A stretch of DNA of 40,873 nt from a virus. Taxonomy: Duplodnaviria; Heunggongvirae; Uroviricota; Caudoviricetes. The translations under genes were made by a program, and so were the position numbers. The stretch is from IMG/VR virus record IMGVR_UViG_2609460344_000022; one strand, given 5' to 3'. This document shows, piece after piece, positions 8,598 to 12,173 of the stretch. Every line of letters starts with the position of its first letter. Position 1 is the stretch's first letter. The notes under the pieces were generated by a model that was not told the DNA's origin, searched no databases, and saw only the letters and a program-made list of their open reading frames with translations.

Positions 8598-8664
8598 GCG
8601 CTTTGTCAGCGCCGTAGATTCATATTCGAATCGTTGTATATTCACCGCCCTGGTGAGTAGAGCG
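8598..8664 (-). promoter_or_regulatory. Candidate nutL (boxA-like + boxB hairpin)
   Basis: Minus-strand CGCTCTACTCACC (boxA-like) then hairpin GCGCT-GACAA-AGCGC; same hairpin/loop and flanking CTACG as the nutR candidate. Confidence 0.5.
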
Positions 8665-8679
8665 TCCTGCTGATGGGTG

Positions 8680-8890
8680 AACTTTATCGGAATGATAAAT
8701 TGATGGCAATAGCAAAATGATAAATTCTTTTGGTTTTCAAATATCGTATTGATTCTTATGGTGTTTTATTTTGTTGTAGGAATTCGACAGGATAAATAAA
8801 GAGATTTGAGGTAGATCTGAATTGCGATGTTTAGTGAGTTGTATCTATTTATTTTTCAACAAATACAATTGGTTATGTGTTTTTAGGTGG
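8680..8890 (-). promoter_or_regulatory. Candidate OL/pL region
   Basis: AT-rich region with three TGATAAAT-type repeats (also present three times between cI and cro); possible TTGCCA-N17-TAAAGT promoter on minus strand. Confidence 0.4.
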
Positions 8891-8899
8891 AGGGATCGA

Positions 8900-8931
8900 G
8901 AGGAAAAGAAAACCCGGCGCTGAGGCCGGGC
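8900..8931 (-). terminator. Intrinsic terminator ending the kinase operon
   Basis: Minus strand: CCCGGC-CTCA-GCGCCGGG hairpin followed by TTTTCTTTT immediately after the small ORF stop. Confidence 0.6.
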
Positions 8932-9095
8932 TAGATTTTAAAGTATTTATCTTTTAGAGATGTAGATGTAAAATTTTTCGCCTTTGAAAATTTTTTGTCA
9001 TCAGAAGGGCTTATGAACTCATCTTTTTTGTAGGGAACCGCTAATGCTGCATCACGTCTGCGAGGCAGCTTGCTTACTTCCTCGCGCTTTTTCAT
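8931..9095 (-). CDS. Small basic protein (54 aa), translationally coupled to kinase
   Basis: ATG 2 nt after kinase stop (TAATCATG) with AAGGA SD inside kinase 3' end; Lys/Arg-rich (MKKREEVSKLPRRRD...); not in ORF track (<60 aa). Confidence 0.4.
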   Translation of the reverse strand: MKKREEVSKLPRRRDAALAVPYKKDEFISPSDDKKFSKAKNFTSTSLKDKYFKI

Positions 9096-9097
9096 GA

Positions 9098-10144
9098 TTA
9101 GTTATCCTTTAATAACCTATACAGTTTTGTAGGGGTACATCCTGAGGATATTGTTAAGTTCGTAGCACGCCTTTTCCGCCCATCATCGTATAAACGAAAA
9201 CCAGTAGTAGACGAATTTTCTGCGTCAAAAACTATAGACAGTATAGCGTCCCCAGACTTTTTTTGCCATTCGCATGTGCCGTTAGTTGGTTTCGTCATCT
9301 GTAGACGCCAGTCAAGAACGCCATCACTTATAGCTGAGAGATCGTTTAGTACATCTAGTACTGATTGATATCTTTCATTTGGATCTACATGAATGCATTT
9401 GTTTACTATTGTTATCAATTTTTTATGTATATGGGGAGGATATTCTTTTAATGGATAGCAGCCATTAATTATCGACTCTCTGAGTTGTTCAATCGTGCTA
9501 AATGCAGATCTTTCTCTTTCAAAATTATCATGTCCAACACACATTCTATATATGGTTAATCCTGCCTGATATATGTCATATGTGAAATTATAATCATTTG
9601 TTGATAAAGAAAAATATTCCGGTGGCACATGAAAATGATATCCAAACTCAGGCGCAGCTCTCGATTCCTCATTGACTAACTGAGATAATCCAAAGTCAGA
9701 TAGCATGGCCTCATTTCTGTTTGATATCATGATGTTATTAGGTTTTATATCAAAATGCATAAGACCTTTTGAGTGTATATGATAAAGTCCACTTAAAAAT
9801 TGAATAGAATACCGTATTATCTCCCTGCTTGTAAGATTATTTTTTTTCATTAATTGGTTTAGCGAACCATTATGATAAAATGGCATGGCTATATAGATAT
9901 TGCTCTCACATTGAGCAGCATACTGAACTTGCACAATATTTGGATGTGCATGTTTATAGAGAAGCCTTGCTTCATTAAAGTAGTCGTCGTGGTTAGTGTT
10001 TTCTTTTTTTTCTATTTCTTTAATCACCAAGTCATGAGCTAGGTGTCTGTCATGAGCCAGATATACTTTTGAAAAACAACCCTGTTCTTCTAGATCACGA
10101 ATCCATTCGAATTCTACATCAGCTCTTTTGTATGGAGTTAGCAT
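9098..10144 (-). CDS. Eukaryotic-like Ser/Thr protein kinase (Stk-like)
   Basis: 348 aa; catalytic loop HFDIKPNN, DFG motif (SDFGLS), beta3 Lys (VIKEI); strongly AT-rich; located between cI and pL. Confidence 0.8.
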   Translation of the reverse strand: MLTPYKRADVEFEWIRDLEEQGCFSKVYLAHDRHLAHDLVIKEIEKKENTNHDDYFNEARLLYKHAHPNIVQVQYAAQCESNIYIAMPFYHNGSLNQLMKKNNLTSREIIRYSIQFLSGLYHIHSKGLMHFDIKPNNIMISNRNEAMLSDFGLSQLVNEESRAAPEFGYHFHVPPEYFSLSTNDYNFTYDIYQAGLTIYRMCVGHDNFERERSAFSTIEQLRESIINGCYPLKEYPPHIHKKLITIVNKCIHVDPNERYQSVLDVLNDLSAISDGVLDWRLQMTKPTNGTCEWQKKSGDAILSIVFDAENSSTTGFRLYDDGRKRRATNLTISSGCTPTKLYRLLKDN

Positions 10145-10599
10145 CCCCTTACCTCCGCAGATAGTGCAGCCAAAACAGCTTCATTTGTTTCAGTTGTAAA
10201 ACCAGAATTATCGATTCCATTTATATTGCGGTGTGACTTCAATATTTCTTTATACTCGATCTCTGTTAGGTTCAATGATGATTTCATGCCAGATTTTCTA
10301 ATAGTGTAATATCTTCTTACATCACTGCTTGAAAATGCTTCTTGAATAACAGCTTCTATATAAAGGCGGTCAATGCTAAGATTATCAGAGTTTGATTCAG
10401 TAACGCGTATGGCAGCTAATTCAACATTATATAAATTAAGAATATCGAGGATGTTATTTCTCACATACTTTAACTTTTCTGGTGTGTCTAAGGTCGAAGG
10501 TATTTTAATAACATCAACACATTTGAGTGCAGACTCATTAGTGCAATATACAACAAAAGATGTAACTTTGGGCGCCGCTCTAACACCTAGTATTCTCAT
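10138..10599 (-). CDS. Hypothetical kinase-partner protein
   Basis: 153-aa ORF overlapping kinase start by 7 nt (translational coupling); AT-rich; no recognized motif. Confidence 0.55.
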   Translation of the reverse strand: MRILGVRAAPKVTSFVVYCTNESALKCVDVIKIPSTLDTPEKLKYVRNNILDILNLYNVELAAIRVTESNSDNLSIDRLYIEAVIQEAFSSSDVRRYYTIRKSGMKSSLNLTEIEYKEILKSHRNINGIDNSGFTTETNEAVLAALSAEVRGC

Positions 10600-10666
10600 T
10601 TTTTATATCCTATTTTAGAATCAGGCCGCATCTCTGCGACCATCCATCATCCAAACGTCTCTTCAC

Positions 10667-11008
10667 TCATCCGAAGAAGCAGCAATCCGGGTCAGCACGC
10701 ACAAGCTCAAGCGCATCAGTCAGCGAAAGTTCAGTACTGTACTGATGCCATTTCATATCCTTCCGCATCCAATAGATTTTCCATCTATCCAGAGAACGTA
10801 TGTACTTGATTCTTGCTGATGGCAGGATGTTTGTTTCACCTGGATTGCCCTGCCACACGGGGCGCTGTTCGCCGATATCTATCGTTTGGTCATTGATGCT
10901 ATAAACAATATCCAGTTCATTGCGGATATGTTCAGGCGGCCTTATGCTTTCAATGAATTGGTTAACTTCTTTTTTGACCGCTTGATATTCAAGGTCAGTG
11001 AACGCCAT
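10667..11008 (-). CDS. Hypothetical protein downstream of cI
   Basis: 113-aa ORF between cI and the kinase pair, same strand. Confidence 0.5.
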   Translation of the reverse strand: MAFTDLEYQAVKKEVNQFIESIRPPEHIRNELDIVYSINDQTIDIGEQRPVWQGNPGETNILPSARIKYIRSLDRWKIYWMRKDMKWHQYSTELSLTDALELVRADPDCCFFG

Positions 11009-11068
11009 CTATCCTCCTCACCCAAACGTCTCTTCAGGCCACTGGTTACCAGCTATGTGACGATGAAG

Positions 11069-11773
11069 TCACGAACTTTTCAGCCACTCCCTTGCCTCGA
11101 TGTCATCCAGATGGCGAGATTGCTTCAGAATACCAGCTACATACTCCACCTTTGCTACTTGATGATAAGGCAACGTTATTGGCCTATGATCTTGGTTGAT
11201 GCTTGTAAATTGGTATTCTCCGTCTCTGTCATAGCCAAGAACTTTGATCATGTTGTGTCCTTCAACAGTTCTGACAAACACCTCATCCCCCGGGAATACT
11301 TTGGTGTTAGGCTCTATGAGTACATATTCTCCTGATTTTATTCTGGGCCACATGCTGTCTCCTTTCACACGAAGACCAAAGGCATCTGGATCATCGCTAT
11401 AAATTTTGAGCCACCCATCGCGCTCTTCGGTCATCTCGATGGCACCATCAACACCAAGAATTGCCTCACCAACCACGCGCACTAACCCTTTTCTTACCTG
11501 ACCGACAAAAGTTAAAGAATCTGAGCATGATGCAATTGGTGTTACATCATGTACCAAATCAAGCCACCCATTAGGTAACCCAAGTGCGGCTTCAAATTTT
11601 CTTGCTAGTTTATCCCCTATGTTTCGAGTGCTTTTTTCACCGGAGACTTGCGTGAGTTGAGAAGGGCTAACCCCAAGCTTATCGGCAAAGCTTGCATTAG
11701 TGTTACCCGCGATTTTTTTATGCTCATCTAGCAAAAACGCCAGATTTGATTTGCGAATATCTTTGTTTTCCAT
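11069..11773 (-). CDS. cI: CI-type repressor (HTH + S24 LexA-like peptidase domain)
   Basis: 234 aa; N-terminal HTH (FADKLGVSPSQLTQV), C-terminal autocleavage domain with Ser (GDSMWP) and Lys (MIKVLG); divergent from cro. Confidence 0.9.
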   Translation of the reverse strand: MENKDIRKSNLAFLLDEHKKIAGNTNASFADKLGVSPSQLTQVSGEKSTRNIGDKLARKFEAALGLPNGWLDLVHDVTPIASCSDSLTFVGQVRKGLVRVVGEAILGVDGAIEMTEERDGWLKIYSDDPDAFGLRVKGDSMWPRIKSGEYVLIEPNTKVFPGDEVFVRTVEGHNMIKVLGYDRDGEYQFTSINQDHRPITLPYHQVAKVEYVAGILKQSRHLDDIEAREWLKSS

Positions 11774-11886
11774 CTCACAATTTTCCCTCTATTTAGCAAA
11801 TGGATAAATACGCAATATGATAAATTTACATTGCGGTTGATTTATCAAAATGGTAAAGTTATTCTGTGTGATAAACGGAGGCACTA
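11774..11886. promoter_or_regulatory. OR / pRM-pR divergent promoter-operator region
   Basis: 113-bp cI-cro intergenic region with three TGATAAAT/ATTTATCA-type repeats; possible TTGCGG-N17-TAAAGT rightward promoter. Confidence 0.55.
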
Positions 11887-12120
11887 ATGAGTAATGAACT
11901 ACTACGCTGGCGAAAAGAGGCTTCTAGTGAGGAATGGAAGCGACTCGCCGCATTAGCGAAAACTTCAGTTGGCTATCTTGACCAGATTGCATATGGATTT
12001 CGAAGAGCTTCCCCTGATAAAGCGAATGCAATCGAAGAAGCTACTCGTAATTTCACGGGTTATAAACCTGTGAAAAAGGAAAACCTTGTGTTCGCATCGC
12101 GTAGAGCATCGGCAGCATAA
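11887..12120 (+). CDS. cro: Cro-like regulator
   Basis: 77-aa ORF divergent from cI, first gene of rightward operon. Confidence 0.65.
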   Translation: MSNELLRWRKEASSEEWKRLAALAKTSVGYLDQIAYGFRRASPDKANAIEEATRNFTGYKPVKKENLVFASRRASAA

Positions 12121-12127
12121 GTAACAC

Positions 12128-12173
12128 CGCTCTTTTCACAATGGGCATTCGTCCTACGTCGCTGACAAAGCGA
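12128..12173 (+). promoter_or_regulatory. Candidate nutR (boxA + boxB)
   Basis: CGCTCTTTTCACA (close to lambda boxA CGCTCTTACACA) followed by hairpin TCGCT-GACAA-AGCGA between cro and cII. Confidence 0.6.

Follow-up and report, generated by a model that had tools for sequence, protein, structure and literature searches.

Introduction

The closest described counterparts of the locus reported here are the N utilization (nut) sites of phages H-19B, P22 and 933W. In H-19B, nutR/tR1 is a Rho-dependent terminator in experimental use; footprints on nutR show that N together with NusA protects the spacer and boxB, and the mutations R3H, S11F, R15C, R15P and R18P in the arginine-rich motif of N abolish antitermination at nutR/tR1 (Sen laboratory, e.g. 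PMC3526286, PMC4499122). For P22, the nuclear magnetic resonance structure of an N peptide bound to boxB (PDB 1A4T; Cai et al. 1998) revealed a GACAA pentaloop with a GNRA-like fold, from which the C is looped out to contact the peptide. The Shiga toxin (Stx) phage 933W (GenBank AF125520) carries the annotations 'nutL; putative N-utilization leftward' at 9614-9680 and 'nutR' at 13096-13141, and phi24B (HM208303) annotates nutL and nutR likewise. Here we follow up an original prediction of nutL and nutR candidates in a stretch of viral DNA of 40,873 nucleotides (nt), the IMG/VR virus record IMGVR_UViG_2609460344_000022, hereafter called the window. We argue that the two hairpin sites are almost certainly the nutL and nutR of an H-19B/933W-type lambdoid prophage of Escherichia coli and that, given the annotated and experimentally studied versions already carried by near-identical phages, they are a correct rediscovery of sites that are already known.

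Results

Each early operon carries one copy of the same hairpin

The region 7900-12500 was read directly, and motif and hairpin scans covered the whole window. The 19-nt motif CTACGKCGCTGACAAAGCG, that is CTACG-(G/T)CGCT-GACAA-AGCG, occurs exactly twice in the 40,873 bp, at 8599-8617 on the minus strand and at 12154-12172 on the plus strand, and in 0 of 100 dinucleotide-preserving shuffles, which bears out the claim that both early operons share such a hairpin. When perfect 5-bp stems enclosing GACAA, GAAAA, GAAGA or GAAA loops were searched for, the only two GACAA hairpins found were those of the nutL boxB and the nutR boxB, which in isolation fold as predicted with -8.5 kcal/mol (z -2.6) and -6.4 kcal/mol (z -2.5), respectively. 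There is one copy per early operon, both in sense orientation, and the layout of the early region, pL-nutL-N on one side and pR-cro-nutR-tR1-cII on the other, is canonically lambdoid, sharing its architecture with lambda itself. The elements that define this layout are the following.

8681-8709, minus strand: promoter pL, TTGCCA-17-TAAAGT, sigma-70-like, overlapping the ATTTATCA operator repeats; found by the promoter scan
8662-8674, minus strand: conserved 5' end of the pL transcript, ATCAGCAGGACGC, invariant across an alignment of lambda, P22, H-19B and YYZ-2008
8598-8617, minus strand: nutL, with the CUACG flank (8613-8617) and boxB GCGCU-GACAA-AGCGC (8598-8612); from the motif, the hairpin scan and folding
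8049-8432, minus strand: N antiterminator gene, 127 amino acids, arginine-rich motif at residues ~3-20; first open reading frame (ORF) downstream of pL
11831-11859, plus strand: putative promoter pR, TTGCGG-17-TAAAGT, read directly and parallel to pL (TTGCca..ATTTATCA..TAAAGT)
11887-12120, plus strand: cro, 77 amino acids, H-19B/BP-4795 immunity type; from the ORF and family matches
12154-12173, plus strand: nutR, with the CUACG flank (12154-12158) and boxB UCGCU-GACAA-AGCGA (UCGCUGACAAAGCGA, 12159-12173); from the motif, the hairpin scan and folding
12174-12258, plus strand: tR1 region, a probable Rho-dependent terminator zone with the hairpin UAUGCGUUUCCACGCAUA at 12203-12220; aligns with lambda rutB/tR1
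12259-12555, plus strand: cII, the first gene requiring read-through past tR1; Pfam PF05269 Phage_CII, E = 6.5e-26

The -10 hexamer of pL lies 6 nt upstream of the ATCAGCAGGACGC transcript start, whose first base we presume to be 8674 from the known start of lambda pL; with promoter and conserved start both upstream, nutL falls within the pL leader, ahead of N. The pR site was missed by the promoter scan because its -35 hexamer matches at only 3 of 6 positions, and it coincides with the aligned oR1-oR3 annotation of the ST2-8624 record; the pR transcript is predicted to begin at ~11866. On the rightward transcript, nutR starts 8 nt past the cro stop codon, ahead of cII, and the tR1 hairpin UAUGCGUUUCCACGCAUA aligns with the lambda tR1-region hairpin TATGCATTTATTTGCATA; transcripts stopped at tR1 would be expected to end near 12200-12250.

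The sites are shared with H-19B and with 933W

A 4.7-kb region of the window is 96-97% identical to the Stx phages 933W, phi24B, Min27, P27 and others. The spans annotated in 933W align with the window base for base, from the C of a boxA-like CGC through the last base of boxB, and the boxB, flank and spacers of 933W are identical to those of the window, while its immunity region differs in the cI N terminus, the operators and cro. The immunity module of the window is instead of the H-19B/BP-4795 type, with a cI of 234 and a cro of 77 amino acids as in H-19B, and H-19B carries the same boxB hairpins, CUACG flank and spacer hairpins at the same positions. Its nutL matches that of the window over ~130 nt save one base, located in the boxA-like string, and its nutR shows 4 differences in ~86 nt, among them a spacer GGAC where the window has GGGC, pairing being retained through a G-U pair. 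The supplementary oligonucleotides RS662-665 of PMC3526286 are antisense to the boxA, spacer and boxB of H-19B nutR, and when reverse-complemented they read CATAAGTAACACCGCTATTTTCAC (boxA), CACAATGGACATTCGTCCTACG (spacer) and TACGTCGCTGACAAAGCGAGTCCC (boxB); the nutR boxB of H-19B (oligonucleotide RS664), like that of 933W, is identical to the one in the window. With the 933W and phi24B annotations aligning with the predicted spans, and H-19B sharing the sites, both candidates had been named correctly.

Behind at least five different operator/immunity sequences the same nut cassette recurs without change, with a mosaic junction right at the transcript start. The cassette is also widespread: out of 5,426 complete E. 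coli genomes, 610 matched a query with the nutL region and 1,042 a query with pR-cro-nutR.

The boxB stem covaries

A scan of IMG/VR with the motif of the original prediction gathered at least 120 stretches, from which about 100 nutL and about 100 nutR copies were obtained. More distant relatives of N (85% to 38% identity) occur in the Salmonella phages 103203_sal5, BIS08P22 and SI5 and in the E. coli phage YYZ-2008, and their sites retain the CUACG flank, while their boxB conforms to NNGCU-GA(C)AA-AGCNN, the bottom pairs being different. In a 10-site alignment, 97.8% of the cells of the boxB stem pair and the two bottom pairs are represented by 4 and 2 pair types; the resulting covariation score was reached by 0 of 500 shuffles, and sliding the partner by 1-3 columns left pairing at 24-42%.

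A few of the collected sites look different. In the nutL of 103203_sal5 (stretch L126, ~4280-4300), the usual CUACG flank is followed by an aberrant boxB, GCUC-CGUCAAC-GAGC; the nutR of this phage, whose N is 85% identical to that of the window, keeps UCGCU-GACAA-GGCGA. Outlier CTACG-boxB sites with unrelated flanks were also seen on the IMG/VR contigs L020 (~1220-1300), with a canonical-looking boxA CGCTCTTTTACAAA and a second one, GGCGCTGAC, ~30 nt downstream, and L038 (~1700-1800), with a different upstream region.

N and boxB belong to the P22 class

The arginine-rich, N-like protein that had been pointed out at 8049-8432 is N: it matches Pfam PF25694 N_peptide ('Transcriptional antitermination N peptide') above the gathering score (E = 6e-14) and phrog_271 (E = 2e-38), and it is 95% identical to the N of H-19B. 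Its arginine-rich N terminus reads MTRRTQFKGNSRSRRRERLK, and R3, S11, R15 and R18, the residues hit by the inactivating H-19B mutations, are all kept.

The original prediction had further proposed that a GACAA loop, in place of the lambda GAAAA, implies a distinct N specificity. This is sound relative to lambda, whose loops are GAAAA and GAAGA, but it does not define a new class, since GACAA is the known loop of P22 and the specificity is thus distinct only with respect to lambda. The nutL boxB of P22, GCGCUGACAAAGCGC, is identical to that of the window at 15 of 15 nt (the P22 nutL as annotated in NC_002371 is CGCTCTTTAacttcgatgatGCGCTGACAAAGCGC). A search of PDB sequences with N gave no meaningful match; the 1A4T peptide is too short and of too low complexity for phmmer, so that the link to P22 rests on boxB identity and on direct alignment. 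In the latter, F-K-G-N-S-R-S-R-R-R-E-R of the window faces F-A-G-N-A-K-T-R-R-H-E-R of P22 N (gp24), giving the common motif F-x-G-N-(S/A)-(R/K)-(S/T)-R-R-x-E-R, and the C-terminal RNA-polymerase-binding tail VA(L/I)YAAGxRKSxxxTAR aligns as well, although overall identity between the two proteins is only ~36-39%. The window sites are hence boxB elements of the P22 class, with GACAA on a G-C-rich 5-bp stem matched by an N motif GN(A/S)(K/R)(T/S)RR(H/R)ER, and the one is predicted to be bound by the other.

In other respects P22 differs: its boxA is canonical (CGCTCTTTA) and 10-11 nt from boxB, spacer hairpins and the CUACG flank are absent, and its nutR boxB has a different stem (CCGCC/GCGG). 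Lambda shares with the window the ATCAGCAGGACGC start of the pL transcript, the place of the nutR boxA and the tR1-region hairpin, but its boxB is GCCCU-GAAAA/GAAGA-AGGGC, its spacers are 8-9 nt long without hairpins, and lambda-type N has only the last ~22 residues in common with the N of the window (tblastn 105/106-127, ~82% identical).

The N relatives as a whole fall into two classes by boxB loop. The GACAA pentaloop is found in the window, H-19B, 933W, P22 and the nutR of 103203_sal5, and a GAAA tetraloop, in which the flipped-out C is absent, in BIS08P22, SI5 and YYZ-2008 (stretches L127, ~4270-4300 and ~2270, L128 and L129). The arginine-rich motifs co-vary with the loop, being G-N/T-S/A-R/K-S/T/A-RR in the former class and G-S/T-A-A-G/S-RRR in the latter, and the CUACG flank is kept across both classes except in P22. 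It could be that this split represents a natural specificity switch by presence or absence of the flipped-out base.

A boxA at nutR, a doubtful one at nutL

The original prediction placed boxA-like strings at 12128 on the plus strand and at 8652-8664 on the minus strand, and both are found there. They and the other elements around the two boxB hairpins are these.

12128-12140, plus strand: nutR boxA CGCTCTTTTCACA, core CGCUCUUUU at 12128-12136; from position and homology, and start of the 933W nutR annotation
12143-12154, plus strand: nutR spacer hairpin GGGC-AUUC-GUCC; from the fold, conserved in the Salmonella and YYZ-2008 relatives
8652-8664, minus strand: nutL boxA-like string CGCTCTACTCACC, doubtful as a boxA; from the motif, and start of the 933W nutL annotation
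8642-8656, minus strand: nutL spacer hairpin 1, UCACC-AGGGC-GGUGA; from folding, homologous to lambda CACC-AUGAA-GGUG
8617-8632, minus strand: nutL spacer hairpin 2, GAUUC-GAAUAU-GAAUC; from folding
8444-8589, minus strand: long-range stem of the N leader, arms of ~22 nt each at 8568-8589 and 8444-8465; from minimum free energy and centroid folds of the 255-nt leader

The boxA-like string of 13 nt is separated from the boxB stem by 18 nt at nutR and by 39 nt at nutL, in agreement with the ~19 and 39 nt given before; long spacers that differ in length between the two sites are already known for this nut family and are no peculiarity of the window. The claim that a boxA-like CGCTCT precedes both boxB hairpins has to be divided. 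It stands for nutR, where a boxA of the form CGCUCUU(U)A, namely CGCUCUUUU, lies 5' of boxB, and where the string CGCTCTTTT, directly past the cro stop, is the positional homologue of lambda CGCTCTTA and P22 CGCTCTTTA. Taken by itself, the degenerate boxA motif could have arisen by chance (at least 2 matches in 33 of 100 shuffles), so the support for a boxA comes from position and homology and not from statistics. Counted, here and below, among the matches listed together with the reference phages, nutR has CGCTCT in 43 of 106 sites and CGCTAT in 59 of 106, so the nutR allele of the window is a common one.

At nutL the claim is doubtful. The string occupies +11 to +23 of the pL transcript, within the conserved 5' leader. 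The lambda leader runs ATCAGCAGGACGC-ACTGACCACCATGAAGGTGA-CGCTCTTA-...-boxB, with boxA after a small 5' hairpin, and where the nutL string stands it reads CGCACTGACCACC, which is not the lambda boxA. The leader of the window runs ATCAGCAGGACGC-TCTACTCACCAGGGCGGTGA-ATATACAAC-...-boxB, and at the position of the lambda and P22 boxA it reads AUAUACAAC, with nothing boxA-like there. By this alignment, the 'boxA' of nutL is made up of the conserved leader's CGC and the initial bases of a hairpin arm. Its relatives have CGCACT (76 of 104) or CGCATT (25 of 104) here, as do H-19B (CGCACT) and 933W (CGCATT), both of which have CGCTAT at nutR; the window, with CGCTCT at both sites, owes the nutL version to a T at 8661 (minus strand) that recurs in 0 of the 103 other nutL sites. 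A 24-mer containing the nutL CGCTCT had no match in whole-collection scans of IMG/VR or of the GTDB representative genomes, and among complete E. coli genomes only 23CRST047, 23CRST049 and cM8a contain the segment at 100% identity, all three being 100% identical to the window in both nut regions. The occurrence of CGCTCT at both sites is thus most simply a rare single-nucleotide polymorphism and probably neutral.

Structured spacers and the N leader

Among nutL relatives, the loop of spacer hairpin 1 varies and its stem hardly does, with one variant at one position; the stem of spacer hairpin 2 is invariant and its loop is GAAUAU, AAAUAU, AAGCAA or AGUGAU. Variation is therefore confined to the spacer loops, the boxA-like string and compensating pairs of boxB, with spacer stems essentially unchanged, which fits structured spacers. 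This feature is named in the title of the paper of Neely and Friedman on H-19B (2000, Mol Microbiol 38:1074), which speaks of 'alternative NUT RNA structures'.

We also considered a long-range helix around the nutR boxB, in which two differences from the nutR of H-19B, spacer GGAC to GGGC and post-boxB GTCC to GCCC, would form a compensatory pair. It was rejected for want of covariation: because GGAC is frequently found with GCCC (~23 sites, as against 5 with GGGC and GCCC, while GGGC with GTTC is present as well), the idea is unsupported.

The 255-nt pL leader folds far more stably than its shuffles (z = -4.28, 0 of 200 as stable). The arms of its long-range stem lie just past nutL and just ahead of the N Shine-Dalgarno sequence. 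The stem is common to 933W, and in H-19B the middle section is different. Presumably it resembles the RNase III stem of the lambda N leader, which couples nutL to N translation.

Other features of the prophage

Between pL and cI lies a minus-strand cluster (8911-11008) that consists, as in 933W, of a 54-amino-acid ORF and the three genes given below; it is like that of 933W and unlike that of ST2-8624, a phage of H-19B immunity with other genes at this place. In the H-19B record the stretch from pL to cI is unannotated. Further features are as follows.

11069-11773, minus strand: cI; cI and cro flank the operator/promoter sequences
10667-11008, minus strand: DUF3024-type protein, in the cluster between pL and cI
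10138-10599, minus strand: RuvC-like resolvase, in the same cluster
9098-10144, minus strand: stk, eukaryote-like Ser/Thr kinase, in the same cluster
8932-8911, minus strand: intrinsic terminator ending the cluster, 'tM' in the 933W annotation
7332-8045, minus strand: ORF of 237 amino acids directly downstream of N, starting 3 nt past the N stop; phrog_2539 (unknown function)

The 237-amino-acid ORF has no Pfam match, its central Cys-rich segment is weakly like endonuclease VII, HNH or Lar proteins, and in 933W its place is taken by another gene, L0079. Matches at Rfam gathering scores were seen at 16783-16957, 18821-19019, 20406-20604 and 23746-23951, comprising sok antitoxin RNA, two tandem isrK + C4-antisense + c4-a1b1 modules ~1.6 kb apart, and STnc100; a search of the window for tRNA genes gave none. 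The peptide string HQPQQPEADWVNP appears twice in a 72-amino-acid ORF (12570-12788), and the related QQHQPQQPDADS within a replication-type ORF of 360 amino acids (12809-13891). These repeated strings (~12570-13500) point to direct repeats in the DNA close to where the replication module begins, which are possibly iterons.

Discussion

The anatomy, position and orientation of the two sites, their near-identity to sites annotated and used in other phages, the covariation of the boxB stem and the identity of N are matters of observation. What happens at these sites can be sketched by analogy. The leftward pL and the rightward pR transcript would each expose a boxB hairpin whose 5-bp stem is capped by a GACAA pentaloop, and the pentaloop would adopt a fold like that of a GNRA tetraloop, its C being flipped out. 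The phage protein N (8049-8432) is expected to bind this hairpin with its arginine-rich N terminus and, jointly with NusA on the spacer, to remain tethered to the elongating RNA polymerase. Modified in this way, polymerase would pass the Rho-dependent tR1 between nutR and cII as well as terminators downstream of N, and the contribution of boxA would probably be small. In this scheme N binding, the role of NusA, read-through of tR1 and the probable dispensability of boxA would carry over from what is known of H-19B, P22 and lambda; N- and nut-dependent read-through of terminators and the dependence on NusA, in particular, are expected here through the near-identity to H-19B.

Several observations weigh against the assignment or fail to lend it support. 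A short fold of the nutR region is no more stable than its shuffles (z = -0.28), and neither is a longer cro-cII segment (z = 0.12), such that thermodynamics alone would not pick out nutR. Rfam, none of whose families covers nut sites, matched nothing between 8 and 12.3 kb at its gathering thresholds, and adds no covariance-model support. The boxA-like string of nutL is off the canonical position, the boxA of lambda and P22 lying further 3', and the experimental support comes from the relative H-19B and not from the exact allele of the window. Nothing, however, contradicts the assignment.

The original prediction implicitly followed a model with boxA plus boxB at each site. Taken to its full extent, this would make both CGCUCU strings functional loading sites for NusB and S10 (NusE), within a complete lambda-like N-NusA-NusB-NusE-NusG complex, a reading that we regard as unlikely, though it is the only alternative of some weight. 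In its favour, NusB-NusE recognises an 8-nt boxA, the nutR CGCUCUUUU matches the rrn/lambda boxA core at the position homologous to the lambda and P22 boxA, and CGCUCU occurs at both sites of the window. Yet at nutL the string begins at +11, in a part of the leader that does not serve as boxA in lambda, the true boxA position being taken by AUAUACAAC, and its CGCTCT is private to the window among the other nutL sites surveyed; rarity and non-canonical position together argue that the boxA difference is neutral. At nutR, the free coexistence of CGCTAT with CGCTCT suggests weak constraint, and in H-19B, RNase H probing showed no protection of boxA by any factor. Going by the title of the 2000 paper of Neely and Friedman, boxA, NusB and S10 are reportedly dispensable for H-19B N. 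A narrower version, in which the window allele might have acquired NusB/S10 (NusE) loading at the two sites, or recovered it, appears improbable to us; if it were true, an N system that is otherwise reported to require few host factors would have changed in its dependence on them.

That the sites, though true nut sequences, no longer function because the prophage is decaying strikes us as very unlikely. The window is indeed a chromosomal prophage allele, given the 100% matches in three E. coli chromosomes; against decay, the ORFs of N, cI, cro and cII are intact and match their families over the full length, the nut cassette is a few bases from that of inducible phages, and the early, replication, lysis and head genes of the window look like a complete set. 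We give hardly any credence to the idea that the hairpins are other RNA or DNA signals, be it intrinsic terminators, RNase III sites or protein operators, whose similarity arose by chance. They are short and G+C-rich, and by analogy with lambda nutR overlaps the Rho-utilisation region of tR1; but as read from the sequence no U tract follows either hairpin, the terminator scan flagged neither, and both lie in sense orientation in the two early operons. Moreover, the hairpins show no difference from the boxB named in H-19B and from that of P22, whose complex with the N peptide has been solved, and covariation maintains a stem in RNA. We thus return to nutL and nutR of an H-19B/933W-type prophage as the reading to be preferred.

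Taken together, a reading of sequence only recovered the regulatory anatomy of a lambdoid early region. Current understanding is unchanged by it. Prior descriptions exist for the sites, for N, for a boxB of P22 type and for the unusual, structured spacers. The system in question nevertheless matters, given that N/nut antitermination governs delayed-early expression in Stx phages and in their non-toxigenic relatives, and via the delayed-early genes it indirectly affects Q and the expression of late and toxin genes.

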